Shown here in pieces: positions 442 to 31,265 of a DNA stretch of 64,000 bases. Each line of letters opens with the position of its first letter. Position 1 is the first letter of the stretch. The DNA comes from Alphaproteobacteria bacterium. GTDB lineage: Bacteria > Myxococcota_A > UBA796 > GCA-2862545. The position numbers and the translations under genes are program-made. The notes beneath the pieces were generated by a model. That model ran no database searches and was not told where the DNA came from. It was given only the letters and a program-made list of their open reading frames with translations. Location of the stretch: positions 403,348-467,347 of the forward strand of contig JACKEO010000001.1 of assembly GCA_020632955.1 (NCBI GenBank). The letters run 5' to 3'.

Positions 442-9360
<8,919 letters not shown>

Positions 9361-18744: not shown

Positions 18745-19599
18745 ATGATCGCCGTCACCGGAGCCACCGGAAAGCTGGGGACCCACGTCCTCTCCCTGCT
18801 GCTGGAGCGCGTGCCCGCAGCGCAGATCCGCGCCGTCGTGCGCACGCCGTCGAAGGCCGCCGCCTGGTCGGCGCGGGGCGTGGAGGTGGTCGCCGCCGAC
18901 TACGACGACCCCGAACGTCTCGAGGCTGCCTTCCGCGGCGCCGACAAGGTGCTGCTCATCTCGTCGAGCGCCGTGGGGCAGCGGGCGCGCCAGCACCGGG
19001 CCGCCATCGACGCCGCCACCCGGGCCGGGGTGCCCCTGCTGGTGTACACGAGCATGCTGCACGCCGACACCAGCCACACCCTCCTCGCCGAGGAGCACCG
19101 GGCCACCGAGGCCGCGCTGAAGGAGGCACCGTTGTCCACGATCGTCCTGCGCAACGGCTGGTACGTCGAGAACTACACCGAGAACCTGGGCGCCAACCTC
19201 GGCATGGGCCTGTTCCCCGGCGCCGCGAAGGACGGCCGCATCGCCGCCGCCACCCGCGAGGACCTCGCCGCCGCGGCCGTGGCCGTGCTCACCGAGGAGG
19301 GCCACGCCGGCCACACCTACGAGCTGGCCGGCCCGTCCTTCACGATGACCGAGCTCGCCCGCACCGTGTCGGAGGTCGCCGGCCGCAGCCTGCCCTACGT
19401 CGACATGGAGGAGGCCGCCTACCGCGCCGCCCTCGTCGAGGCGGGCGTGCCCGCGGGCATGGCGCACGTGCTGGCCGACGCCGACGCCGCCATCGCCCGC
19501 GGCGAGCTGGACGCGCCCTCCGACGATCTGGTGGGCCTCATCGGCCGGGCGCCCACGCCCCTGCGCGCCGTGGTGGAGGCCCGGCTTGGCCACGGATGA
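18745..19599 (+). CDS. qorB: NAD(P)H:quinone oxidoreductase, NmrA/SDR-type (YtfG/QorB-like)
   Basis: The ATG at 18745 is preceded by GAGGAG with 5-nt spacing. MIAVTGATGKLGTHV..., KVLLISSSAVGQRARQHRAAIDAA..., YTSMLHADTS and LRNGWYVENY align by eye along the whole length with E. coli YtfG (QorB). Confidence 0.85.
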   Translation: MIAVTGATGKLGTHVLSLLLERVPAAQIRAVVRTPSKAAAWSARGVEVVAADYDDPERLEAAFRGADKVLLISSSAVGQRARQHRAAIDAATRAGVPLLVYTSMLHADTSHTLLAEEHRATEAALKEAPLSTIVLRNGWYVENYTENLGANLGMGLFPGAAKDGRIAAATREDLAAAAVAVLTEEGHAGHTYELAGPSFTMTELARTVSEVAGRSLPYVDMEEAAYRAALVEAGVPAGMAHVLADADAAIARGELDAPSDDLVGLIGRAPTPLRAVVEARLGHG

Positions 19600-20521
19600 C
19601 CGCCCCCCGGGTCCTTCCCTGTCCCGTCGCACCGTGATGGCGGGCGCGTCGGCGGTGGCGGGCCTCGCCGGCCTCCGCTCGCTCGCCGCCCCCTCCTCCA
19701 CCGAGGTCCCCATGCGCTCGATGCCCGCGATCTACCTCCCCCACGGCGGCGGCCCCTGGCCCTGGCTGCCGGCGGACTTCGGCACCCCCCAGGGCCACAC
19801 CGCCCTGCGCACCTGGCTCGAGGCCCTGCCCTCCCAGGTGCCACGGCCGCGCGCCATCCTCTGCGTCACGGCCCACTGGGAGGCGCCGGTGGCCACGGTG
19901 TCCACCCAGGCCGCCCCGGGCCTCCTCTTCGACTACGGCGGCTTCCCCGCCCACACCTACCAGCTCAGCTGGCCTGCGCCCGGTGCACCCGACGTGGCCG
20001 CGCGCGTGGTGCAGCTGCTCGAGGCCGCCCACATCCCCCACGCGGTGGACGCCGAGCGTGGCCTCGACCACGGCACCTTCGTGCCCCTGTCGGTGGCCTG
20101 GCCCGAGGCCGACGTGCCGGTGGTGCAGATGTCGCTGGTGAAGGGGCTCGACCCCGCGCACCACCTCGCCATCGGCCGCGCGCTCCGTCCGCTCCGCGAC
20201 GAGGGCGTGCTGATCGTGGGCAGCGGCATGAGCTACCACGACATGCGCGGCTTCGGCGGCCAGGGTCGCGCCGACGCCGCCACCTTCGACGGCTGGCTGG
20301 GCGAGGCGATGGCCTCCCCCGCCCACCGCGCCGACGCCCTCACCGCCTGGAGCCAGGCCCCCGCAGGGCGGCGCAGCCACCCCCGCGAGGAGCACCTGCT
20401 GCCGCTGATGGTGGTGGCCGGTGCGGCCGAGGGCGACGCCGGCAGCCTGCCCTTCCGGGACGACGTGCTGGGCGTGCGCGTCAGCGCCGTCCGCTTCGAC
20501 GCGCAGGACGCGCCCGCCTGA
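19586..20521 (+). CDS. class III extradiol dioxygenase, 4,5-DOPA-dioxygenase-like (YgiD family), possibly Tat-exported
   Basis: MPAIYLPHGGGP..., ILCVTAHWE, FDYGGFP, YPAPG, LDHGTFVPL, VVQMSL, GSGMSYHD and EEHLLPLMVVAG match the YgiD/LigB pattern. The TTG at 19586 would add an SRRTVMAGASAVAGLAGLRSLA leader. Alternative ATG starts are at 19637 and 19712. Confidence 0.8.
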   Translation: MATDDRPPGPSLSRRTVMAGASAVAGLAGLRSLAAPSSTEVPMRSMPAIYLPHGGGPWPWLPADFGTPQGHTALRTWLEALPSQVPRPRAILCVTAHWEAPVATVSTQAAPGLLFDYGGFPAHTYQLSWPAPGAPDVAARVVQLLEAAHIPHAVDAERGLDHGTFVPLSVAWPEADVPVVQMSLVKGLDPAHHLAIGRALRPLRDEGVLIVGSGMSYHDMRGFGGQGRADAATFDGWLGEAMASPAHRADALTAWSQAPAGRRSHPREEHLLPLMVVAGAAEGDAGSLPFRDDVLGVRVSAVRFDAQDAPA

Positions 20522-20601
20522 GTCCCGCGGCCGCACACCGAGGCGCATCCCAGACCATCGGTGACGGGATCCCGCGTGCCGGCCCGTCCCACACTCTATA
20601 G

Positions 20602-20615
20602 ATTCATACATGAAT
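20602..20615. promoter_or_regulatory. perfect 6-2-6 palindrome ATTCATACATGAAT inside an A/T-rich island at the doxX 5' end
   Basis: ctctatagATTCATacATGAATgatttcatgg is the only A/T-rich stretch between the dioxygenase and DoxX genes. Candidate operator and/or -10 region. Confidence 0.3.
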
Positions 20616-21077
20616 GATTTCATGGAGACGCCGATGTCGAACGCCGCTGCCACCTCCCCTGCCGCCCCCGCCACCCTCGCCCTCGACGACGCCACCGTAC
20701 GCGACGCCGGCCTGCTGCTGCTCCGCGTGGTGCCGGCGGTCTTCATGCTGACGCTGCACGGCTGGGGCAAGCTCCAGGCCCTGCTCGCGGGCGCCGAGGG
20801 CTTCCCCGACCCGCTCGGCGTCGGCAGCCTGGCGAGCGCCACGCTGGCCGTGGGTGCGGAGGTCGGCGCGTCGGCCTTCGTGGCCGTCGGGCTCTTCACG
20901 CGCCTCGCCACGGTCCCGCTGGTGATCACGATGGCCGTGGCCGCCTTCGTGCTGCACGCCGGCGACGACCTCGCCACGCGCGAGTCCGCGCTCGTGTACC
21001 TCACGCTCTTCCTCACGGTCGCGGCCCTCGGCCCCGGCCGGTGGTCCCTGGATGGACTGCGGGCGCCCCGTGCGTGA
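20610..21077 (+). CDS. DoxX-family membrane protein
   Basis: It has four hydrophobic segments. LLLLRVVPAVFMLTLHGWGKL and the overall size (about 150 aa) fit the DoxX family. The true start may be ATG 20622 or 20634, because 20610 lies inside the palindrome/promoter-like island. Confidence 0.72.
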   Translation: MNDFMETPMSNAAATSPAAPATLALDDATVRDAGLLLLRVVPAVFMLTLHGWGKLQALLAGAEGFPDPLGVGSLASATLAVGAEVGASAFVAVGLFTRLATVPLVITMAVAAFVLHAGDDLATRESALVYLTLFLTVAALGPGRWSLDGLRAPRA

Positions 21078-22302
21078 GTCCGACCCCGCCCCCGCGGTGG
21101 TGCGCCTGCCCCGGGGGCTGATGGTGCTCATGGGCGCCCTCGCGGCCCTGGGGCCGTTCAGCATCGACCTGTACCTGCCCGCCTTCGGCGCCATCGCCGG
21201 CGAGCTCCGCGCGCGTCCGGACCAGGTGCAGGCCACGCTGTCGACCTACTTCGCGGGGCTCGCCGCGGGGCAGCTGCTGGTGGGGCCGCTCTCGGACCGG
21301 ATCGGCAGGCGGGGTCCCCTGCTCGCGGGGCTGGCGCTGTACGTGCTGGCCTCGCTGGCCTGCGCCCTCGCCCCCGACGTGGAGGCCCTGGCGGGCTGGC
21401 GCGCCGTGCAGGCCTTCGGCGCCTGCGCAGGGCTCGTGACCTCCCGAGCGGTGCTGCGGGACCTCTTCTCGCCCCGCGACATGGCGCGGGCACTGTCGGC
21501 CGTGATGCTGGTGATGGGACTCGCGCCCATCGTGGCGCCGATGGTGGGGGCCACCGTGTCCGAGGTGCTCGGCTGGCGCGCCCTCTTCGTCGGCCTCGCA
21601 GCCTACGGGGCCGTCGTGCTCGTCGCCGTGGCCGCCTCCCTGCCGGAGACGCGCGGCGAGGCCCCGGGGCGCTCGGCAGCCCAGGTGGTCGGCGCCTTCG
21701 TCGAGGTGCTGCGCACCCGCCACTTCACCGGTCACGCGGTGGCCGGGAGCCTCGCGATGGCGGCGATGTTCGCGTACATCGCGTCGTCCTCCTTCGTGTT
21801 CACGCAGGCCTACGGGCTGTCCACCGGGGGCTTCGCGCTGGTGTTCGGGGGCACCGCCGCCAGCTTCATCGCCGCCACGCAGGTCAACGAGCGCTGGCTG
21901 CGCCGCCGCAGCCCCGAGAGCACGCTGCCCGCGGTGCTGGGCGTGCAGGCCGTGGCGTCGCTCGGCGTGCTGCTCGCGGCCACCACCGGTCTCGGGGGGT
22001 GGGTGGGCCTGTCGATCCCGCTCGTGGTGTGCATCGCGAGCCTGGGCTTCTCGTTGCCCAACACCACCGCCGCGGCGATGGCGCCCGTGGGCCACCACGC
22101 CGGCATCGCCGCCGCGCTGCTCGGGGTGATCCAGTACGGCGTCGCGGGCCTGGCCACCTGGGCCGTCGGCGGGCTCTACGATGGCACCGCGCTGCCGATG
22201 GCCACGGCGATCGCGGTACTCAGCGTCAGCGCGAGCGTGGTGCTGTTCGCCAGCACCGGCGACAGGACCCGGGTGGCCCCGGAGCTCGCGAGGAGTCGCT
22301 GA
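21052..22302 (+). CDS. MFS transporter, Bcr/CflA (DHA1) drug-resistance family
   Basis: GPFSIDLYLPAFGAIAGEL...ATLSTYFAGLAAGQLLVGPLSDRIGRRGP aligns by eye with E. coli Bcr. About 12 TM segments. An alternative GTG start lies at 21070. Confidence 0.85.
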   Translation: MDCGRPVRESDPAPAVVRLPRGLMVLMGALAALGPFSIDLYLPAFGAIAGELRARPDQVQATLSTYFAGLAAGQLLVGPLSDRIGRRGPLLAGLALYVLASLACALAPDVEALAGWRAVQAFGACAGLVTSRAVLRDLFSPRDMARALSAVMLVMGLAPIVAPMVGATVSEVLGWRALFVGLAAYGAVVLVAVAASLPETRGEAPGRSAAQVVGAFVEVLRTRHFTGHAVAGSLAMAAMFAYIASSSFVFTQAYGLSTGGFALVFGGTAASFIAATQVNERWLRRRSPESTLPAVLGVQAVASLGVLLAATTGLGGWVGLSIPLVVCIASLGFSLPNTTAAAMAPVGHHAGIAAALLGVIQYGVAGLATWAVGGLYDGTALPMATAIAVLSVSASVVLFASTGDRTRVAPELARSR

Positions 22303-22925
22303 TGGCACGCGTCACCGCCGAGGAAGCCGCCCGGACCCGCGAGAGGCTCCTCGACGCGGCCCTCGAGGTGTTCTGGGAGCACGGCGTGGCGCGGCCCAGC
22401 CTCACGAAGGTGGCAGAGCGGGCAGGCATGACCCGCGGCGCGATCTACGGTCACTTCGACAACAAGGAGGACGTGTTCAGCGCGCTCTGCGACCGCTTCC
22501 TGCTGCCGGCCGCCGTGCTGGAGCAGCTGCGGCAGGACGGCGCCGACGATCCCCTCGGCACGCTGGTCGCCTGGGTCCAGAGCATCCTCCGCGACGCCCG
22601 CGCCGATCCGTGCCGACGCAGGTTCTTCGAGATCCTGCTGCTGAAGTGCGAAGCCGTGGAGGGCGACGACATCCGCGGACGCATGCGGCGCGACTTCGAG
22701 CGCGCGCGCCTGCACGAGGAGGCCCTGCTCTGCGCCGCCGTGCGCCAGGGGCAGGTGCCGGCCGACCTGGACGTCCCCCTCGCCGCCCTGATCCTCCACG
22801 CCACGATCGGCGGCCTGCTGCGCCACCTCGCCCTGCATCCCGAGGCCGAGGCCGACCTGCTCGTGGAGCGCATCGGGGGCCTGGTGTGCGACATGCTCCG
22901 AGGCGAGGCGCTGCGACGGGCGTAG
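22302..22925 (+). CDS. TetR/AcrR-family transcriptional regulator
   Basis: The ATG at 22302 overlaps the MFS stop (TGATG). The HTH is RERLLDAALEVFWEHGVARPSLTKVAERAGMTRGAIYGHFDNKEDVF. Confidence 0.88.
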   Translation: MARVTAEEAARTRERLLDAALEVFWEHGVARPSLTKVAERAGMTRGAIYGHFDNKEDVFSALCDRFLLPAAVLEQLRQDGADDPLGTLVAWVQSILRDARADPCRRRFFEILLLKCEAVEGDDIRGRMRRDFERARLHEEALLCAAVRQGQVPADLDVPLAALILHATIGGLLRHLALHPEAEADLLVERIGGLVCDMLRGEALRRA

Positions 22926-23041
22926 GCCGGGGTCCGACGCATCGGGAGACCCGTCGCACGCGCGTGTCGGACGGTCGGGGCCGCCTTGTCCCGGCCTGCC
23001 CCCTGGCGTACGCTGGACCCACTGGGACCAGGGAGGTCGGG

Positions 23042-24355
23042 ATGACGACGCGCCACCGGGGATGGCTGCTGGGGGCGGGCTTCGCCCTCGTGACGGGATG
23101 TGTGGGCGTGCCCGAGGGCAGCCTCGCGCCGGGCCTGCAGGCCGAGCAGACGCAGCGCTGGCGACCGGCCGCGAACGCATGCCGGGTCTTCGGACGACGC
23201 GACCTCGCGCCCGGCCAGCCGGGGCGCTTCGCCCGCCCGGAGTGTCCCGAGGGCCGCTTCCAGGACGGCACGCTCTGCTACGTCGAGCCCGACCCGATCC
23301 CGGCCGAGTGCCCGCCCGGGCGCTTCTCCGACGGCACGGCCTGCGCCGTGGAGCCCGACCCGATCCCGGCCGAGTGCCCCGAGGGCCGCTTCGCCGTGGG
23401 CGAGCTCTGCGACCAGGACCCGGGCCCCTTCGAGCCCACCTGCCCGCCGGGCCGCTTCTCCGACGCCAAGGGCTGCCTCGACCCCGACGACGGCCGCTAC
23501 ACCACCGCCGAGTGCTCGCCCGGGCGCTTCTCCGACGGCACCCTCTGCGTGGCCGACCCGGGACCCGTGGAGGCCGAGTGCCCCAAGGGCCGCTTCTCCG
23601 ACGGCACCCTGTGCGTGGTGGACCTGTCGCCCACCGAGCCCACCTGCCCGCCGGGTCGCTTCGCCGACGTCCAGGGCTGCCTCGACCCCGACGACGGCCG
23701 CTTCACCCAGCCCGCCTGCGAGCCCGGCCGCTTCGCCGACGCCGACCTGTGCCAGGTCGACACCGCGCCCACCGAGCCCACGTGCCCGCCGGGTCGCTTC
23801 GCCGACGCCCGCGGGTGCGTCGACCCCGACGACGGCCGCTTCAGCCAGCCCGAGTGCGAGCCCGGCCGCTTCGCCGATGCCGATCTGTGCGCACTCGACC
23901 TCGAGCCCGGCGAGGCCGAGTGTCCGCCCGGCCGCTTCGCGTCCGTGGACCTCTGCACCCTCGATCCCGACGCGTCGGACCCCACCTGCCCCGAGGGCCG
24001 CTTCGCCACGCAGGATGCCTGCGCGCTCGACCCCGATCCCATCGCGGCCGAGTGTCCCCCCGGCCGCTTCTCCGACGGCCAGGCCTGCGTCGTCGACGGC
24101 GATCCGGTGCCCCCCACCTGCCCGCCCGGCCGCTTCTCGGTCCTCGATCGCGCGTGCGTGGGCGGCAGGGGTCGCTTCTCCGACGCCTCGTCCACCTCCA
24201 GCGGCGTCTTCCACGGGGTGGGCCTGCGCCTGCCCGAGCGCGGCAGCTGGCCCCCCGCCTTCGGCACCCTGGTGCCCGGCAGCGAGGACCTGCGCGTGGG
24301 CGAGCCCTGCACCTGCGTCACCGACGCCACGGGCGCGCTCCTCTGCAGTGGCTGA
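23042..24355 (+). CDS. lipoprotein built from about 14 tandem two-cysteine CP-x-GRF modules (hypothetical)
   Basis: The ATG at 23042 is preceded by GGGAGG. MTTRHRGWLLGAGFALVTGC is a signal peptide plus lipobox. Repeated units of the form ECPPGRFSDGT-x-C-x-x-DP-x-P follow. Confidence 0.8.
   Translation: MTTRHRGWLLGAGFALVTGCVGVPEGSLAPGLQAEQTQRWRPAANACRVFGRRDLAPGQPGRFARPECPEGRFQDGTLCYVEPDPIPAECPPGRFSDGTACAVEPDPIPAECPEGRFAVGELCDQDPGPFEPTCPPGRFSDAKGCLDPDDGRYTTAECSPGRFSDGTLCVADPGPVEAECPKGRFSDGTLCVVDLSPTEPTCPPGRFADVQGCLDPDDGRFTQPACEPGRFADADLCQVDTAPTEPTCPPGRFADARGCVDPDDGRFSQPECEPGRFADADLCALDLEPGEAECPPGRFASVDLCTLDPDASDPTCPEGRFATQDACALDPDPIAAECPPGRFSDGQACVVDGDPVPPTCPPGRFSVLDRACVGGRGRFSDASSTSSGVFHGVGLRLPERGSWPPAFGTLVPGSEDLRVGEPCTCVTDATGALLCSG
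23243..24185 (+). repeat. tandem coding repeat, period about 66-72 bp (22-24 aa), about 14 copies
   Basis: Copies in order: CPEGRFQDGTLC, CPPGRFSDGTAC, CPEGRFAVGELC, CPPGRFSDAKGC, CSPGRFSDGTLC, CPKGRFSDGTLC, CPPGRFADVQGC, CEPGRFADADLC, CPPGRFADARGC, CEPGRFADADLC, CPPGRFASVDLC, CPEGRFATQDAC, CPPGRFSDGQAC, CPPGRFSVLDRAC. Confidence 0.9.
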
Positions 24356-26159
24356 CGCGCGGCACGCGGTGGTCGCCGGCCTGGGGGCGATCGCCGTGGC
24401 CGGCCTGGCGGTGCAGGTGCCCTGGCGGCCCTCCGACGCCGCCGAGGCGTCCCACCCGCCACCGACGGCCTCGCCCGGCGCCTTCGTGGGCAGCCAGGCC
24501 TGCGGGAGCTGCCACCCGGGTCCCCACGCCTCCTGGCAGCAGAGCTTCCACCGCACGATGACGCAGGTGGCCACGCCCGCCAAGGCGCTGGCGCCCTTCG
24601 CCGGCGAGGTGCTGTCCGACCGCGGACGCACGCTGCGCATGTCGCAGGACGAGGGCCGCCTGCGGGTGGAGGAGGCCGCCGACGGCACCTTCGGCGCGCC
24701 CCGGGCCGTCGAGATCAGCACCGGCTCCCACCACCTGCAGGTCTACTGGGTGCGGGCCGACGACGGCACGCTCACGCAGCTGCCCTTCGCCTGGCGGGTG
24801 GCGGAGGCGCGGTGGATCCCCAACGCCGACTCCTTCCTCGTGGACCCCGACCTCGCGGCCCGCGGCAGCGGCGGCCGCTGGGACACCACCTGCTTCCGCT
24901 GCCACGCCACCGGCTGGTCCACGGACGACCCCGCCACCGGGGCCCACGACCAGGTGGCCGTCCGGGACCTCGGCATCGCGTGCGAGGCCTGCCACGGCCC
25001 TGCGGCCCACCACGTGGCGCACAACCGCAACCCGCTGCGCCGATGGGGCCTGTGGCTGCAGGGCGAGGGCGACCCCACCGTGGTGCACCCCCACCGCCTC
25101 GACGCCGCGCGCGCCAACGCCGTGTGCGCCCAGTGCCACAGCGAGGCCATGCCCCGGGTGCTCCCGGGCGACGACCGGTCGCGTGAGCCCTTCCTGGCGG
25201 GCGGCCGCCACGAGGACCACTTCTCGCCCGACGCCCCCGAGCGCCTGCACCAGGCGCTGCACGAGCGCGGCGTGCTGTCGGGACCGCGCGTGGCCGACGG
25301 GTTCTGGCCCGACGGCACCGGGCGCGTGGCCGGACGCGAGCACACCGCGATGCGACGCTCGGCCTGCGCCGAACAGGGCGAGCTCGCCTGCACGGACTGC
25401 CACCAGCTCCACGGCGCCGACCCCGACCAGCAGCTCGCCCCCGCGGCGCGCACCGACGCCATGTGCACCGGCTGCCACCCGGACGTGGCCGCAGCCGGCC
25501 GCGACCACACCCACCACGCGCCCGACGGGGAGGCCAGCCGCTGCGTGAGCTGCCACATGCCGCGCGTGACCTACGGGCTCTTCGCGGCGCGCCGCTCCCA
25601 CCGCATCTCGAGCCCCACGGCGTCAGGCGCGGACGCCCACGCGCGGCCCAATGCCTGCAACCTCTGCCACCTCGACCAGACGCTGGCCTGGACCGCCGAG
25701 GCGCTGGCGGCCTGGCACGACCAGCCCCGACCCGAGCTCCCCCCGGTGCACACGGAGGTGGCCGCCTCGCTGGTGTGGGCGCTCACCGGTGATGCCGTGC
25801 AGCGCGCCCTGATCGCCTGGCACCTGGGCGACGCCGCCGCGCGGGAGGCCTCGGGCGACGACTGGCAGGTGCCGGTGCTCAGCCACCTCCTCGACGACCG
25901 CTACGCCATCGTCCGGGCGCTGGCCGGAGAGGCCCTGTTCGGGCGGTGGGCGACGCCCGAGGACTTCGACTACGTGGCCCCCGCCGAGGCACGTCGCGCC
26001 TTCGCGCGGCGCGCCCTCGACGCCTGGCCGGGCGGCAGGCCACGCGCCCCCGCCGAGGCACGTCAGCGCCTGCTGCAGCCCGACGGACAGGTGGATCTGC
26101 AGCGCTTCTCCGAGCTGGCCGCCCAGCGCGACGACACGCCCGTGGGGGTGACCGAGTGA
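24348..26159 (+). CDS. membrane-anchored multihaem c-type cytochrome (8 CxxCH) with helical-repeat C-terminal region
   Basis: The GTG at 24348 overlaps the upstream stop by 8 nt. The N-terminal anchor is AVVAGLGAIAVAGLAVQV. Haem motifs are CGSCH, CFRCH, CEACH, CAQCH, CTDCH, CTGCH, CVSCH and CNLCH. The last about 170 aa are Ala/Leu-rich and HEAT-like. Confidence 0.85.
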   Translation: MADARHAVVAGLGAIAVAGLAVQVPWRPSDAAEASHPPPTASPGAFVGSQACGSCHPGPHASWQQSFHRTMTQVATPAKALAPFAGEVLSDRGRTLRMSQDEGRLRVEEAADGTFGAPRAVEISTGSHHLQVYWVRADDGTLTQLPFAWRVAEARWIPNADSFLVDPDLAARGSGGRWDTTCFRCHATGWSTDDPATGAHDQVAVRDLGIACEACHGPAAHHVAHNRNPLRRWGLWLQGEGDPTVVHPHRLDAARANAVCAQCHSEAMPRVLPGDDRSREPFLAGGRHEDHFSPDAPERLHQALHERGVLSGPRVADGFWPDGTGRVAGREHTAMRRSACAEQGELACTDCHQLHGADPDQQLAPAARTDAMCTGCHPDVAAAGRDHTHHAPDGEASRCVSCHMPRVTYGLFAARRSHRISSPTASGADAHARPNACNLCHLDQTLAWTAEALAAWHDQPRPELPPVHTEVAASLVWALTGDAVQRALIAWHLGDAAAREASGDDWQVPVLSHLLDDRYAIVRALAGEALFGRWATPEDFDYVAPAEARRAFARRALDAWPGGRPRAPAEARQRLLQPDGQVDLQRFSELAAQRDDTPVGVTE

Positions 26160-26563
26160 CCGACCTGCAGCACGAGCGCCTGGGCTGGTGGTGGATCTGC
26201 GTGTTCGCGGCCCTGGGGCTCGTGCTCGAGACGCTCCACGGCCTGAAGCTGCCGGTCTACCTGGATCCGGCGGCCGGGCCGCGCCGCCTGCTCTGGACCC
26301 TCGCGCATGCCCACGGCGTGCTGCTGGGCCTGGTGCACCTGGGCTTCGCCGCCACCCTGCGCGCGCGTCCCGCCTGGGAGGGACGAGGCAGGATCCTGGC
26401 CTCGCGTCTGCTGGTCGCCGCCGCCGTGCTGCTGCCCGCGGGCTTCTTCCTGGGCGGCCTCGTCATCCACGGCGGCGACCCGAACGCCCTGGTGCTGCTC
26501 ACGCCCGTGGGCGGGCTGGCCCTGGTGGGCGCGGCCGCGCTCACGGCGCGCGCCACCCCGTGA
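26156..26563 (+). CDS. small integral membrane protein, 4 predicted TM segments with intramembrane His residues (hypothetical)
   Basis: The GTG at 26156 overlaps the cytochrome stop (GTGA). Hydrophobic segments are WWWICVFAALGLVL, LLWTLAHAHGVLLGLVHLGF, LLVAAAVLLPAGFFLGGLV and LVLLTPVGGLALVGAAAL. Confidence 0.7.
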   Translation: MTDLQHERLGWWWICVFAALGLVLETLHGLKLPVYLDPAAGPRRLLWTLAHAHGVLLGLVHLGFAATLRARPAWEGRGRILASRLLVAAAVLLPAGFFLGGLVIHGGDPNALVLLTPVGGLALVGAAALTARATP

Positions 26564-26598
26564 GGCGTGAGGCGTGAGGACTCACGGTGCCGCCGACC

Positions 26599-27228
26599 TC
26601 AGGCAGGCGCGGTGAGCACGGAGCCCATGCGGGCCAGGCAGGCCTCGAAGACCGTCAGAGGCTCCTGACCCGACCCGGCAGCACCCTGCAGGGCCAGGCG
26701 TCCTGCGGCCACCACCGTCGCGGCCGCCAGGGCCACCGCGTGGCTGTCGGCCGGCACGCCCCAGCGCGCCGCGATGACGGCACCCAGCGCGGCCTCCGCG
26801 TCCACGGAGACCTGGATCCACACGGCCCGCAGCCGCTCCGTGCCCGTCAGCACGTCGAGGAGGACCGCCGCGTCCTGGGCGTGGACGAGGCCCAGCACCT
26901 CGGCGTGCGCCTGCCTCACCGCGTCGGTCAGGCTGCCCTCGCCACACAGCGCGTCCACCCGCGCCACCACGTGGTCGAGCCCCGCCGTGAGGTAGGGCCT
27001 CACGGCATCCTCCTTCCGCGGGAAGTAGCGGTAGAAGGTCCGCTCCGACACCCCCGCGTGTTCGGCGAGCTCCCGGATGGTGAAGTCGCTGCGTCCGTGC
27101 TGCAGGAGGAGGGCCACCACCGCCTGGGAGGCCGCGAGCACGGCCTGGTCCCGGCTGCTCGGGGCGTCGAACCGCGGCAGGGGGGTCCCTTGGGAGGCGT
27201 CGGGCGTGGGCTCGGGGTGCGTGGGCAT
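26599..27228 (-). CDS. TetR-family transcriptional regulator
   Basis: The ATG at 27228 is preceded by GGGGAGAGG. The HTH is FTIRELAEHAGVSERTFYRYFPRKEDAV. Confidence 0.88.
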   Translation of the reverse strand: MPTHPEPTPDASQGTPLPRFDAPSSRDQAVLAASQAVVALLLQHGRSDFTIRELAEHAGVSERTFYRYFPRKEDAVRPYLTAGLDHVVARVDALCGEGSLTDAVRQAHAEVLGLVHAQDAAVLLDVLTGTERLRAVWIQVSVDAEAALGAVIAARWGVPADSHAVALAAATVVAAGRLALQGAAGSGQEPLTVFEACLARMGSVLTAPA

Positions 27229-27260
27229 CGACCTCTCCCCGGCTCCGTCCACGGCAGATG

Positions 27261-27275
27261 TGGCAGTTTCTGCCA
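27261..27275. promoter_or_regulatory. perfect palindrome TGGCAGtttCTGCCA in the TetR/di-iron divergent intergenic region (candidate TetR operator)
   Basis: 6-3-6 inverted repeat located 33 nt from the TetR start and 32 nt from the divergent ATG at 27307. Confidence 0.45.
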
Positions 27276-27306
27276 GTGCGTGGCATGGAGGCCGGAGGAG
27301 GTCCCC

Positions 27307-28161
27307 ATGTCGACGGCCCTGCGGGCGATGGCGCCCGCGCAGCGGATCCGGTTCCGCGCAGCCTACCTCACCCACCTGCGCGCACGCGACGGCGTGCCCG
27401 ACCTTCGCGAGCGCAGCTTCGACGTGCGCGAGCGCTTCTTCGAGCGCATCGACGCGGAGCCGGTGCGGTGGGAGGGCGCCTCTCCCGTGGATCCGGACGT
27501 GTTCGCCCGCAACCACGTGGCACCGGCACCCGAGCCGGGGCTCGACGCGGCCACGCTCTGGGCCCTGGCCACCGCCAAGGTCAACCGCGCCGAGCAGTTC
27601 GGCGTGGAGATGAAGATCGACCACGTGGGCGACGAGGTCACGAACGTGGACGACCCCTACACCTACATCCAGGTGGAGGAGACCTACCACACCCGCATCC
27701 TGCGGGACGTGCTGGCCACCCTGGGCCTGCAGATGGAGGTGGCCACCCCCCAGGCGGGCACGCGCCTGCTCATCCGCGGCATGGTCCACATGCCCGAGGG
27801 CCTGGCCAACGTGGCCATCCTCTGCGGCGAGATCTTCGGCGTGGCCGTCTTCTCCCTGCTGCTCGACAAGGCCCGCGAGCTCTTCGCGGCCCAGCCCGTG
27901 GTCCTCGAGCGGATGGAGGAGCTCTTCGCCCAGATCCTCGTGGACGAGGTGGGCCACGTCCACTTCGTGCGCAGCACCCTGGGCCCCGCGGGCATCCGCC
28001 TCGCCCGCTGGATGCTGCCGGTGGTCGCGAACGCCACGCTGCGCGACATCCCCGAGCTGGTGGCGCTCTTCGGCCGTGAGGCGATCCTCACGCGGGTGCT
28101 GGCGGCCGACGTGGATGGCGCGGCGGCGGGGTACGAAGACCGGATGGTGGTGGAGGGGTGA
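27307..28161 (+). CDS. ferritin-like/di-iron-carboxylate-type protein (possible AurF-like oxygenase)
   Basis: The ATG at 27307 is preceded by GGAGGAGG. Two E-x-x-H motifs about 90 aa apart (VEETYHTRIL and VDEVGHVHF) lie in helical-looking sequence. Divergent from a TetR gene. Family assignment is tentative. Confidence 0.7.
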   Translation: MSTALRAMAPAQRIRFRAAYLTHLRARDGVPDLRERSFDVRERFFERIDAEPVRWEGASPVDPDVFARNHVAPAPEPGLDAATLWALATAKVNRAEQFGVEMKIDHVGDEVTNVDDPYTYIQVEETYHTRILRDVLATLGLQMEVATPQAGTRLLIRGMVHMPEGLANVAILCGEIFGVAVFSLLLDKARELFAAQPVVLERMEELFAQILVDEVGHVHFVRSTLGPAGIRLARWMLPVVANATLRDIPELVALFGREAILTRVLAADVDGAAAGYEDRMVVEG

Positions 28162-28194: not shown

Positions 28195-30090
28195 TCACCG
28201 TTTGCGGGTGGGGATGCGGGCGAGGAGGCCGATGCTCGCACCAACGCCCGCGGCGAACCTCCACTCGACGGGTGCGGAGTTGAGCGCAGCCGGCGCATCG
28301 AACAAGCCACCTGCGGGGTAGAACGTGGTGAACTCGTCCTGACGAACGAAGGGGCCGGAGGACAGGCCCGTCCAGTTCTGGAAAGACTGCCCCGCCACGG
28401 GGACGTCGATATCGACGCGCGCGAACACGGAAAGGTAGCGCCACACATCGGCCTCCAACCCAGCTCCGGCGCGAAGAACGACGAGGTTGTTGCCCGCCAT
28501 CCACGCGGCAACGTAGCTGTCCGGGAGCGGTGAGATCACCGAAGCGATGCTCCGGCCATCCCAGTATGCCCACCCGATACTTGCGGTGGGACGTACCAGC
28601 TTCGCCGGGAGCGGTGCGAAGGTCACGCGGTTGCCGACGTACCAGCTGGGGTCGCTGATGACCTGATCGAGGGAGGCCGGGTCGGGAATCTCGCGTTGCG
28701 GCGCTCCATCGATTTCGGAGAAGAACTGCCATCGGAAGGGAGAGGCAAGCACCCCCACGACAAAGGTCACGTCGAGCCATGGCAGGACGCCGTACCCGAG
28801 CTCGAACTCACCCGCGGCCACGAGATCGTTCACGTTCAGCTGGAGCGCGCTCTGCTGCAGGATGTCCCCACTACGCGGGCTTTGCTGGAACTCCTTGGGG
28901 GTCCCATCCCGCAGGAGCAGGCCCGTATGGTGCGCCTGTCCCCAGGGGCCCTGGCTGAATCGGAACGCGGCGCGCACCAGCACCTGCGCACGCCTTCCTT
29001 GGTCCGGCCGGTGCGCGGCCGCAGCGGATGCGGTCTCTCGCATCGGGGATGACCTAGGCGCGTCCAGGCTCGCGCCCGCGAGCGGCCGGACCTCGGTGCG
29101 CGCGAGGACGACCTCGTTACTGACGAGCACGAGGTCCAGGCTCCATCGCTCGGACGCGTGCGCGGGGAGCTGCTCGACCAGCGTCCACGTGCTGTCGTCC
29201 ACGCGCGACATCCAGCCGAGGTGCCGCCCGCCCTCCTCTACCGCCACGCGTGCTGTCGACGGGACCTCCGAGGACCGCGCCGTGAGCGTGTACGGCTCCC
29301 CGACGCGCGCCGCCTCCAGCTCGACCTCGACGGTGAGGGTCACGCCCTCGAGCGCCACCTCCACTTCCACCTCGGCCTGGTCGGCCTGCACCAGCCGCGC
29401 CCGCGCGAACCGCGTGGTCTCGGCGTCCACCTGCCGCACCTCGAAGACCACGTTCCCCGGGTGGCGTGAGGACCAGTGGAGCACCACGAGCTCGCGGAAG
29501 CCCATGCGCTCCACGCGCGCCACGGCCTCGTCGCGGTGGGCCGGATCGAGCAGCAGGAGCCCGTCGTCGCCCAGCACCGAGGGATCCTCGGCGGCCTGGC
29601 TGCCCTCGGGGAGCGCGCCCAGGAGAGCCGACAGGATCCGGTCCTGGCGCTCCCAGATCCACCCGGGCGCCGACGTCTCCGGGTCCACGAGGAAGAGCAC
29701 CGGGCGCTCGCGTGCCAGCCGCAGCCGCACGATCTGCGCCAGTCGGTCGCCGGCCAGCTCGGGCCAGGTCTCCTCGGAGGGCTCCACCACCACCACATCG
29801 CCCGGCACGACCGGCTCGCCGTCCAGGCGCGCCTCCACCGCCTCCACGAGCGCGGCAGGCGCCTCACGGCGCGTGAGGCAGCCCAGCAGCTTCTCGTCCA
29901 CCTCGTTCGTCTCCACGAGGAGGAGGAGTTGCGCCATTGGCGTGCGGTCCACGAGGTCCATCAGCGTGCCGCACCGCAGGGTGTCGGCGGCGCTCGCCAC
30001 CGTGGACGTGAGGAGCCCCACCAGGACGCCGACGCTGCGCCCCCGCAGCACGAGCCGTCCCCCCACGCTCGACCGTGCCCCCGTCGACAT
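28195..30090 (-). CDS. secreted hypothetical protein with beta-barrel-like C-terminal third
   Basis: The ATG at 30090 gives MSTGARSSVGGRLVLRGRSVGVLVGLLTSTVASAAD, a signal peptide. The C-terminal about 280 aa show alternating hydrophobic and aromatic residues (WYVGNRVTFAP, IGWAYWDG, LVVLRAGAGLEADVWRYLSVFARVDIDV). Confidence 0.68.
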   Translation of the reverse strand: MSTGARSSVGGRLVLRGRSVGVLVGLLTSTVASAADTLRCGTLMDLVDRTPMAQLLLLVETNEVDEKLLGCLTRREAPAALVEAVEARLDGEPVVPGDVVVVEPSEETWPELAGDRLAQIVRLRLARERPVLFLVDPETSAPGWIWERQDRILSALLGALPEGSQAAEDPSVLGDDGLLLLDPAHRDEAVARVERMGFRELVVLHWSSRHPGNVVFEVRQVDAETTRFARARLVQADQAEVEVEVALEGVTLTVEVELEAARVGEPYTLTARSSEVPSTARVAVEEGGRHLGWMSRVDDSTWTLVEQLPAHASERWSLDLVLVSNEVVLARTEVRPLAGASLDAPRSSPMRETASAAAAHRPDQGRRAQVLVRAAFRFSQGPWGQAHHTGLLLRDGTPKEFQQSPRSGDILQQSALQLNVNDLVAAGEFELGYGVLPWLDVTFVVGVLASPFRWQFFSEIDGAPQREIPDPASLDQVISDPSWYVGNRVTFAPLPAKLVRPTASIGWAYWDGRSIASVISPLPDSYVAAWMAGNNLVVLRAGAGLEADVWRYLSVFARVDIDVPVAGQSFQNWTGLSSGPFVRQDEFTTFYPAGGLFDAPAALNSAPVEWRFAAGVGASIGLLARIPTRKR

Positions 30091-30329
30091 GGATGGTGTC
30101 CCCCGCCGCCAGCGCCTCGCGCCGCCTCGGCCATCCGGCCGACGCCACGAGGATAGTCGGCCGGAGGCCACGAGGCCCGCCATCGGCGCTGGCACGGCCC
30201 GACCCCCTCGGGCAGGCTCGGCGGAGCTGTCAGATCGACGCCCGCTCGTCGTCCCAGACAGCATCGACCGGAGCCCACCTGCCCTCCCCCTTCCGCCCCA
30301 CCCCCTTCGCCCGCACCCTCCTCCGCCGG

Positions 30330-31265
30330 ATGCTCCGCGCCCGCGCCACGGAGCTCCACGGCGACCCCGACGCCCGCGTCTCCCCGCTGCTCCCGCAGTG
30401 GCAGGAGGGGCTGCACCCCGCGGTGCGCGCTGAGGCCGAGACCCTCGTGGCGTCGGGCGCCCTCCCCCTGCACGACCACGTCCACGCCCTGCACAGCTCC
30501 CAGGCCTTCGCGCTGAACCTCTTCTTGCCGGCGCGCGTGGGCGATCGCACGGCACTCTCGGCCTTCGTGTCCGACGCCCTGGGCCGGGCGGTGTCGATCG
30601 TCGACGTGGAGCTGGAGTTCATCGGCTCGGGCGACCTCCTCGCCGAGATCCCCGGCGCTGTGCCGGGACCCGACGACCGCGTCACGCAGGCCGACGTGGC
30701 CCTGCACCTGCAGGACGAGGCCGGGCGCCGCGGCCTGCTGCTCGTGGAGGTGAAGCTGTCGGAGGGGGGCTTCACCGCCTGCGGCGGCGCAGGCAGTCGG
30801 GGCAACCGCGACAGGGCCCCCTGCGAGGACGCCGCGATCTTCCTGGCCGACCCGGCACGATGCTACCTCCGCCGTCCCCGCCACGCGGCACGCGACCGTC
30901 GCTACTGGACCCTCTTCGCCGCGCACCACGGCAGCGTCGCCGCCGCCTTCCCGGGCGCGGCCCCGACCGGTCCCTGCCCCTTCGCCGGAGACTGGCAGCA
31001 GCCCATGCGCAACCACGCACTGGCGCTGGCCGCCGTGGAGGCGGGCCTCGCGGACTTCGCCGCCGTGGCCCTGGTGCACCACGACCACAACCCCGACGTG
31101 CCGGGCCCGTGGGACGCCTACCGTGAGGCGGTGGCCGCACCCGAGCTGCTCCAGCGCTGGCCCGCCTCACGCCTCCTCACGGCGCTCGACGCCACGCTCC
31201 CGGCCGCACCCTTCCCGGTCGGGGCGTGGCTGCGCGAGCGGTACCACCTCCCGGAGACCCCATGA
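30330..31265 (+). CDS. predicted PD-(D/E)xK-fold nuclease-like protein (hypothetical)
   Basis: ATG 30330 lies in the frame of ORF 30075..31265. Motifs are HALHSSQAFALNLF, QADVALHLQDEAGRRGLLLVEVKLSEGGF (D...E-x-K) and QQPMRNHALA. The stop overlaps the next start (ATGA). Confidence 0.62.
   Translation: MLRARATELHGDPDARVSPLLPQWQEGLHPAVRAEAETLVASGALPLHDHVHALHSSQAFALNLFLPARVGDRTALSAFVSDALGRAVSIVDVELEFIGSGDLLAEIPGAVPGPDDRVTQADVALHLQDEAGRRGLLLVEVKLSEGGFTACGGAGSRGNRDRAPCEDAAIFLADPARCYLRRPRHAARDRRYWTLFAAHHGSVAAAFPGAAPTGPCPFAGDWQQPMRNHALALAAVEAGLADFAAVALVHHDHNPDVPGPWDAYREAVAAPELLQRWPASRLLTALDATLPAAPFPVGAWLRERYHLPETP

Follow-up and report, generated by a model that had tools for sequence, protein, structure and literature searches.

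An octahaem cytochrome c and an undescribed four-helix membrane protein encoded as a conserved gene pair, joined in one lineage by a cysteine-repeat lipoprotein

Introduction

Three closely packed genes in a 64-kb stretch of contig JACKEO010000001.1 (hereafter the window; ~75% G+C, from an activated-sludge metagenome) raise the question of which of their products belong together and what these might do at the membrane. The genes are open reading frames (ORFs) free of stops at 23042–24355, 24348–26159 and 26156–26563, all on the plus strand, as are the features described within them. They encode a cysteine-repeat lipoprotein of 437 residues (gene 1), a membrane-anchored octahaem cytochrome c of 603 residues (gene 2) and a 135-residue protein with four transmembrane (TM) helices (gene 3; the 4-TM protein). 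A preliminary description, made from the DNA letters, did not recognise the combination as a described system, and we found none in Pfam, NCBIfam, PDB or the full-text papers searched. The comparisons reported here show that the conserved unit is two genes, 2 and 3, and not the triad; that gene 2 represents a new, large branch of a known multihaem superfamily; and that gene 3 is the window's member of an undescribed family. Modules that combine a multihaem protein with a small membrane partner are already known; the cytochrome branch and the 4-TM family are new.

Results

The cytochrome and 4-TM genes form the conserved unit

We examined 80 genome loci chosen on gene 3 alone, all from metagenome-assembled genomes (MAGs), and 10 loci chosen on gene 2 homologues. 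A cytochrome gene directly adjoins gene 3 on the same strand in 63 of the 80 gene 3-picked loci, lying directly upstream in 59 and directly downstream in 4; in another 3 it is nearby on the other strand. In the cytochrome-picked set, gene 3 was recognised by sequence in 7 of 10 loci, and one more has an overlapping gene of its size (130 residues). The order of the two genes varies, and 4-nucleotide (nt) overlaps are common. The carriers belong to Verrucomicrobiota, Planctomycetota, Acidobacteriota (mostly Vicinamibacteria), Gemmatimonadota and Myxococcota, with single records labelled Methylomirabilota and Acidimicrobiia. The comparison of gene neighbourhoods proposed with the preliminary description thus finds genes 2 and 3 co-conserved across at least five phyla.

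The same comparison does not bear out the triad as a co-conserved unit. A gene 1 homologue occurs in none of the 80 gene 3-picked loci, and the gene is confined to one cytochrome subclade (see below). Nor is there a third widely conserved gene around the pair: the largest clusters of additional ORFs cover 11 of 85 loci, an ORF with a strict sulfatase signature occurs in only 1 of the 85, and Pfam marks a sulfatase in one more.

Several individual loci show other arrangements. In one of the seven cytochrome-picked loci with gene 3, from a Pirellulaceae MAG (L003, 7955–8250), a frameshift divides the 4-TM gene that follows the cytochrome over two frames, and gene calling missed it; it is either a pseudogene or an assembly error. 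One 687-residue protein (P0305) reads as a cytochrome fused to a 4-TM protein. We did not take it as a Rosetta-stone fusion, because the C-terminal R-D...E tail of the cytochrome (described below) is lost and the chain runs into its partner's N-terminus; it is probably a frameshift artefact across a 4-nt gene overlap. Two Myxococcota MAGs (L015, 1698–3497; L072, 1698–3986) encode homologous secreted proteins of ~600 residues just upstream of the pair, which may represent another lineage-specific third gene, unrelated to the window lipoprotein. An orphan 4-TM gene in L082 lies directly downstream of a gene (2032–5859) for a 1,275-residue protein whose N-terminus is Planctomycete-cytochrome-like and which has two CxxCH motifs, a hint that the 4-TM protein may pair with other cytochromes. 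At L092, where the cytochrome has no adjacent 4-TM gene, a gene for an HTTM/vitamin-K-carboxylase-like membrane protein (681–2294) lies ~700 nt upstream on the same strand.

Gene 2 encodes an octahaem cytochrome of the c554/MccA/OcwA group

The gene 2 product was described at the outset as a cytochrome with an N-terminal membrane anchor, eight CxxCH motifs and a helical-repeat tail, and all of these elements stood up to closer analysis. The hydrophobic helix at residues 6–25 (24363–24422) is a signal-anchor or a signal peptide; about half of the gene 2 relatives have two N-terminal TM helices and about half have one, and the family is therefore membrane-anchored. The CxxCH motifs begin at C52, C182, C212, C260, C348, C373, C399 and C437, and all eight are invariant in an alignment of 65 relatives, from which conservation in gene 2 was read throughout. 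The haem 1 motif (CGSCH, 24501–24515) is followed by a predicted β-sheet domain (residues 88–158, 24609–24821), assigned from the secondary structure of an AlphaFold2 (AF2) model of the gene 2 monomer with a predicted local distance difference test (pLDDT) score of 88.6. Haems 2–4 (CFRCH, CEACH and CAQCH; 24891–25139) align with haems 2–4 of OcwA, and haems 5–8 (CTDCH, CTGCH, CVSCH and CNLCH) occupy 25389–25670. The C-terminal tail (25683–26156) is modelled as a HEAT-like helical repeat with short helices at residues 446–591, where the superfamily otherwise has three long ones; the branch contains no TPR array. It terminates in R-D-x-x-P-x-x-x-x-E-COOH, in which R594 and the last residue, E603, are invariant; this terminus is no marker of partnership with gene 3, as it is also found in cytochromes that have no adjacent 4-TM gene.

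An examination of 8,000 candidates yielded more than 2,000 clusters related to gene 2 at an expectation value (E) of 0.001 or below. Most of these relatives are 610–660 residues long and, at best, are labelled "cytochrome c3 family" or "C cytochrome precursor"; identity across the relatives is 36–44%. Pfam and NCBIfam returned generic multihaem matches only, far under family thresholds. Among solved structures, OcwA of Thermincola potens (6I5B) stands closest, with E 7.6e-15 by phmmer and E 3.6e-23 by the family profile. A Foldseek search with the AF2 model likewise ranked OcwA first (E 8e-11) and the octahaem sulfite reductase MccA next (E 2.7e-5), and the family profile matched c554 with E 1.7e-6.

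In the profile alignment, haems 1–4 of gene 2 correspond to haems 1–4 of OcwA and the last two to OcwA haems 8–9. Alignment and model together indicate a layout equivalent to OcwA haems 1–4 and 6–9, which is the layout of MccA. The β domain falls between haems 1 and 2, as it does in OcwA (residues 75–156), and such a domain is a feature of OcwA and MccA alone (PMC6703420). The OcwA-like haem pairing and the β domain therefore point to an eight-haem core of the MccA type and to placement in "clade 3", which comprises c554, MccA, OcwA and OmhA (Soares et al., 10.1101/2022.02.24.481543). By sequence and predicted fold, then, gene 2 falls in the c554/MccA/OcwA clade of the NrfA multihaem superfamily. 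OcwA-type proteins are very poorly represented in the published survey (10.1101/2022.02.24.481543).

The likeness to the cell-surface proteins OcwA (6I5B; nonahaem) and OmhA (6QVM; undecahaem) extends to W-x-x-S-x-H and CxxCHGP signatures, which they have in common with gene 2, and to the aligned motifs of haem 1, haems 2–4 and the last two haems. Gene 2 nevertheless differs from OcwA in several respects. It has eight haems rather than nine, with the NrfA-type haem 5 of OcwA unmatched; it is TM-anchored in diderm bacteria, whereas OcwA resides in a Gram-positive wall; its helical-repeat tail stands in place of the C-terminal three-helix bundle of OcwA; and it usually has a 4-TM partner, which OcwA lacks. 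We therefore rejected OcwA proper as its identity: gene 2 has eight CxxCH motifs, against nine haems in OcwA, two of them open under HH motifs. MccA of Wolinella succinogenes (4RKM/4RKN), the second-best fold match, shares the eight-haem layout and the β domain. An MccA sulfite reductase was rejected as well, since all gene 2 motifs are CxxCH, none is CX15CH, and there is no mccB, mccC or mccD nearby; nor were the catalytic residues and the Cu-binding Cys pair of MccA identified in gene 2. An NrfA nitrite reductase was rejected on the lack of CxxCK and on a PF02335 (Cytochrom_C552) score of 12.5 bits against a cutoff of 24.1. Membership of a characterised enzyme family with known partners, a case that would have told against the preliminary description, thus did not apply.

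In a Pirellulales MAG (L071, 1717–5756), two tandem cytochrome paralogues of 677 and 663 residues precede one 4-TM gene; in the cytochrome tree the two group most closely with one another.

Outside the haem-binding motifs, only seven His are conserved in gene 2 and its relatives. H68, H128 and H222 are available to the four haems of the N-terminal module, and H355, H387, H390 and H418 to the four haems of the C-terminal module. Haem 2 (C182-FRCH) is probably five-coordinate and open, and a candidate for the catalytic haem, because there are seven conserved His for eight haems and because c554, MccA and OcwA all carry a five-coordinate haem at this position (PMC6703420; 10.1101/2022.02.24.481543). 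In MccA, haem 2 is the catalytic haem (PMC6703420; 10.1101/2022.02.24.481543). One additional Cys outside the haem motifs, C340, is kept in 58 of the 65 relatives.

Gene 3 represents an undescribed family of 4-TM proteins

The small protein encoded by gene 3 was taken from the start to be a 135-residue 4-TM protein, and an AF2 model of the monomer agrees, with four TM helices, a short hairpin and pLDDT 96. Its family comprises 1,179 clusters at 90% identity and 618 at 50%, in at least 486 species genomes. Identity across phyla is 50–60%, compared with 36–44% for the cytochrome. The invariant residues are G21, E25, K31, Y35, R43, R44, L45, L49, H51, H53 and G54 in the first half and L92, P94, G96, F97, G100, G101, D108, P109, P117 and G119 in the second.

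Three stretches hold many of these residues. The first is E25-T-L-H28 at the periplasmic end of TM1 (26228–26239), in which H28 is conserved in at least 90% of members. The second is the signature RRLLWTLAHAHG at the start of TM2 (26282–26317), which includes R43, R44, H51 and H53 and worked as a search pattern. The third is the TM3 motif LLPAGFFLGG with the GDP hairpin that follows it (26429–26482), which together span L92 to P109. The His residues that had been noted inside the predicted helices are therefore conserved in part: H28 is almost invariant and H51 and H53 fully so, whereas H61 (LVHLGF) and H104 are not conserved. The count of Lys and Arg is 8.4 on the side of the N-terminus, loop 2 and C-terminus and 3.3 on the side of loops 1 and 3; the positive-inside rule therefore predicts cytoplasmic termini, with all the conserved polar residues in the periplasmic half of the membrane.

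Database searches did not connect the family with any described one. At E 1, gene 3 matches nothing in Pfam or NCBIfam, and none of 40 relatives scanned singly has a significant Pfam match; there were faint ones to COX1 in 2 of the 40 (E 0.039) and b561 in 1 of the 40 (E 0.006). The family profile found nothing in PDB at E 10. Foldseek with the gene 3 model gave no match better than E 0.5, and the best oxidase chain, CcoN of a cbb3 oxidase, ranked fourth (E 0.9, TM-score 0.39).

We also tested specific identities, and rejected each. DoxX (PF07681) was set aside on an hhalign probability of 0.1% against the window's own DoxX protein and the lack of a Pfam match; DsbB/VKOR, which has redox-active Cys pairs in periplasmic loops, on the lack of any conserved Cys in the family alignment; and a 4-TM dihaem cytochrome b (FdnI/HydC, PF01292), in which His on TM1, TM2 and TM4 ligate the haems, on the lack of conserved His on TM3 and TM4 and, again, of a Pfam match. 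A quinol dehydrogenase of the NrfD/PsrC type, or of the NapC/NrfH type (a tetrahaem c protein with a single TM helix), does not fit a protein with four TM helices, no CxxCH and no profile match. A unit resembling subunit I of haem-copper oxidases was rejected on the empty PDB profile search, HxH being the only common feature.

The cysteine-repeat lipoprotein is confined to one cytochrome lineage

Gene 1 begins with a signal peptide whose lipobox, LVTG-C20 (23042–23101), conforms to the bacterial lipoprotein pattern [LVI][ASTVI][GAS]C, and lipidation of the product is predicted; the homologues in L001 and L002 have the lipoboxes LVAGC and LAAAC. The preliminary description had counted 14 two-Cys modules in this lipoprotein, and exactly 14 are present. 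They are tandem copies of C-x-x-G-R-F-(5–6 residues)-C joined by Pro/Asp-rich linkers with a period of 22–24 residues (23243–24157). A scan of the 64 kb in all frames found the motif at these 14 sites in the gene 1 frame and at no other. The underlying DNA is a diverged tandem array with a period of 66–72 nt plus longer multiples. The product has 33 Cys, 28 of them in the repeats. A non-repeat C-terminal domain (24158–24352), ending in G-[DE]-x-C-x-C-V-x-D...LLCSG, is conserved in an alignment of three homologues. Gene 1 has no match at E 1 in PDB or in NCBIfam, including TIGR02232 (Myxococcus cysteine-rich repeats), and scores 23.3 bits with PF23091 (TNFR/ELAPOR-like), short of the cutoff of 33.2.

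Homologues of gene 1 were located by synteny and by a metagenome pattern scan. The sequenced cases are the window; L002 (41% identity, E 3e-93), whose cytochrome is 66% identical to gene 2; and L001/L086 (E 6e-37), which are one organism and were counted as one case, with a cytochrome 51% identical. In both L002 and L001/L086 the homologue occupies the matching position. An unannotated 540-residue gene in the matching upstream position on a Joint Genome Institute (JGI) contig, L-11, is probably a fourth case. Five other weak Cys-repeat matches (L087–L091) were set aside, as no cytochrome lies alongside. Maximum-likelihood analysis groups the cytochromes of the three sequenced triads in one clade with 100/100 support on a long branch, weakly placed beside a Polyangiaceae sequence. 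This lineage therefore gained the lipoprotein gene in a single event.

A possible quinone-linked complex and its alternatives

NrfH, cM552 or NrfD-type subunits link related cytochromes to the quinone pool. The 4-TM protein resembles NrfH, cM552/NapC and NrfD/PsrC in being a candidate quinone-linking small membrane subunit encoded beside a periplasmic multihaem protein, although it has no haem c motif, unlike NrfH/NapC, and four TM helices rather than the 8–10 of NrfD. Our preferred reading, which we advance tentatively and without claiming that it is probable, is that the products of genes 2 and 3 would assemble into a single membrane complex, with the 4-TM protein connecting the octahaem enzyme to the quinone pool. 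The 4-TM subunit would be the site of electron passage between the pool and the haem chain. The quinone site would be free of cofactors and built from E25, H28, H51, H53, Y35, K31, R43 and R44, with Glu and His of the subunit taking protons, and the invariant polar residues, D108 included, would face the periplasmic leaflet next to the haem domain. The cytochrome would face the periplasm and turn over a small periplasmic substrate at haem 2; an enzyme is more likely than a passive wire because haem 2 probably has no distal His. Where gene 1 is present, its product would be a lipid-anchored, disulfide-stapled repeat protein and may act as a lineage-specific accessory, whether scaffold, spacer or partner.

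Several observations weigh against this quinone-linked complex. A cytochrome is missing from 14 of the 80 gene 3-picked loci, of which 5 lack room for one and 9 have room within 6 kb; gene 3 is missing from 2 of the 10 cytochrome-picked loci, so that adjacency is not obligatory. No gene neighbouring the pair points to a substrate. The open haem 2 follows from a count of His residues, and the invariant M71 or M404 could serve as the eighth distal ligand. Searches with Pfam, NCBIfam, PDB and Foldseek showed no likeness of the 4-TM protein to known quinone-interacting subunits. What the comparisons establish is the genes and their family ties, their linkage, the pattern of conserved residues and the topology as predicted; we infer the complex, the coupling to quinone, the open haem 2 and the direction of electron flow.

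The main alternatives concern the 4-TM protein, whose conserved residues would suit haem b binding as well as a connection to the quinone pool. It might itself be redox-active or catalytic, with E25, H28, H51 and H53 as ligands of haem b or of a non-haem metal such as Fe or Cu, perhaps within an oligomer; the HxH of TM2 would then ligate cofactors on opposite faces, as the HxH on helix X of haem-copper oxidases does, and the octahaem protein would be the electron donor or acceptor. Three conserved His and one Glu do lie at similar depth in the periplasmic half, R43, R44 and K31 are sited where haem propionates could bind, the invariant Gly/Pro-rich motif of TM3 could open a pocket, and gene 3 is more conserved than the cytochrome. 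We nevertheless consider this unlikely. The faint COX1, b561 and CcoN matches that would favour it are none of them significant, the family profile is empty in PDB even at E 10 although PDB is rich in oxidase subunits, TM3 and TM4 have no conserved His, unlike those of known 4-TM dihaem cytochromes b, and AF2 predicts a compact bundle with high confidence. It is likewise doubtful that the 4-TM protein has no redox role and is an anchor, an assembly or stability factor, or a channel for substrate or protons, in which case electrons would pass between the cytochrome and either soluble carriers of the periplasm or bc1-type complexes. The lack of a recognisable cofactor motif and of detectable homology to quinone-binding proteins would fit such a role, as would the cytochromes that occur without a 4-TM gene and the 4-TM genes that occur without a cytochrome. 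At least 9 invariant polar or charged residues among 135, at 50–60% identity, nevertheless exceed the norm for a passive anchor, and the cytochrome already has one or two TM anchors of its own.

Two further explanations give the lipoprotein a leading part. Lipoproteins without Asp at +2 go to the outer membrane in E. coli (Lol pathway), and the gene 1 product has no Asp at +2 after its lipid-modified Cys. The triad might then be an extracellular electron-transfer conduit, with the lipoprotein as its outer-membrane or surface part and the cytochrome as a terminal metal reductase like OcwA, which, as the closest solved relative, is itself a surface terminal reductase (PMC6703420). Neither the operon nor its flanks, however, encode a porin or an outer-membrane cytochrome; gene 1 is missing from almost all carriers of the pair and lacks haem motifs; and the N-terminal TM helices put the cytochrome at the inner membrane. 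The carrier MAGs sampled, moreover, originate from soil, groundwater, lakes, sea water and sludge, and are assigned to phyla whose cultured members are mostly aerobes; we regard a conduit as quite improbable. Scarcely any weight, finally, attaches to the lipoprotein as a client, whose 28 repeat Cys the haem enzyme would oxidise to 14 disulfides, passing the electrons to quinone through the 4-TM protein in a functional parallel to DsbA/DsbB, with the HEAT-like tail as the protein-binding part. A 33-Cys protein is tightly coupled translationally to the cytochrome in all sequenced triad lineages, and the helical-repeat tail and the mostly conserved C340 would suit such a role. Against it, the pair occurs in at least 80 other genomes without such a client, so that this cannot be what it generally does; there is no thioredoxin-like element, and the idea goes well beyond the sequence data.

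In the boldest reading, the 4-TM protein would be a new kind of minimal membrane redox subunit with haem b or a non-haem metal at a Glu-His...His-x-His site on the periplasmic leaflet, possibly at an interface within an oligomer or with the cytochrome. That would make the pair a widespread and so far unrecognised quinol-linked oxidoreductase, possibly of largely aerobic soil and water phyla, and the lipoprotein its dedicated partner or client in the window's clade. We rate this reading as improbable, a shade below either of the two alternatives for the 4-TM protein.

Key steps in the cycling of nitrogen, sulfur and iron are the work of multihaem cytochromes from the NrfA/MccA/OcwA superfamily, and the carrier phyla are abundant in soil, water and sludge, with respiratory chains that have been little studied. 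The branch described here has thousands of members, is membrane-anchored throughout and is usually encoded beside a highly conserved membrane protein that databases do not describe. If the pair is a quinone-linked enzyme, soil, water and sludge ecosystems would contain an electron sink or source that has gone unaccounted for, and the 4-TM protein would represent a new way for a haem chain to couple to the membrane. For finding a physical partner, the lipoprotein of the window's lineage offers a handle.

Operon layout, transcripts and neighbouring genes

Long spurious ORFs are common in the window because its G+C content is high. The three genes were nonetheless rightly described as real and tightly coupled: they translate cleanly and pack closely with either choice of start for gene 2. 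The GTGA overlap of genes 2 and 3 (26156–26159), in which the gene 3 start overlaps the gene 2 stop, is exact in the sequence. Genes 1 and 2 overlap by 8 nt only when gene 2 is read from GTG 24348; with the start of the public gene call, GTG 24369, gene 2 encodes 596 residues and is separated from gene 1 by a 13-nt gap. The homologous gene 1/gene 2 pair in L002 is called with an identical 8-nt overlap. The expectation that the products are extracytoplasmic or membrane proteins agrees with the lipobox of gene 1, the N-terminal anchor of gene 2 and the four TM helices of gene 3.

A Shine-Dalgarno-like sequence, AGGGAGG (23030–23036, plus strand), can be read 5 nt ahead of the gene 1 ATG. No sigma-70 promoter match was found, and the sole terminator-like site falls inside gene 3. 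Transcript-derived contigs from two wastewater metatranscriptomes match the triad region at 99–100% identity with depths of 2–4. Three of them lie inside gene 1 (23195–23428, 23941–24113 and 24160–24346), and one bridges the gene 1/gene 2 junction (24203–24451). They provide weak evidence of transcription in situ and of co-transcription of genes 1 and 2; contaminating DNA is a possible source.

Upstream of the triad on the same strand (19586–22925) lie genes for a LigB-type extradiol dioxygenase, a DoxX protein, a major facilitator superfamily (MFS) transporter and a TetR regulator. A DoxX gene also occurs ~3.8 kb downstream of the triad in JGI contig L-11, maybe by coincidence. Downstream, neither a TetR-linked 'di-iron-like' ORF (26587–28161, plus strand) nor a gene for a 786-residue secreted protein (28195–30555, minus strand) has a Pfam match at E 0.001. 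The heptamer CGTGAGG is repeated three times in tandem at 26559–26579, beginning within the gene 3 stop codon, and the repeat region folds no better than shuffled sequence. A DNA contig from the source sample (X1) has one additional copy of the heptamer, indicating that the copy number is polymorphic.

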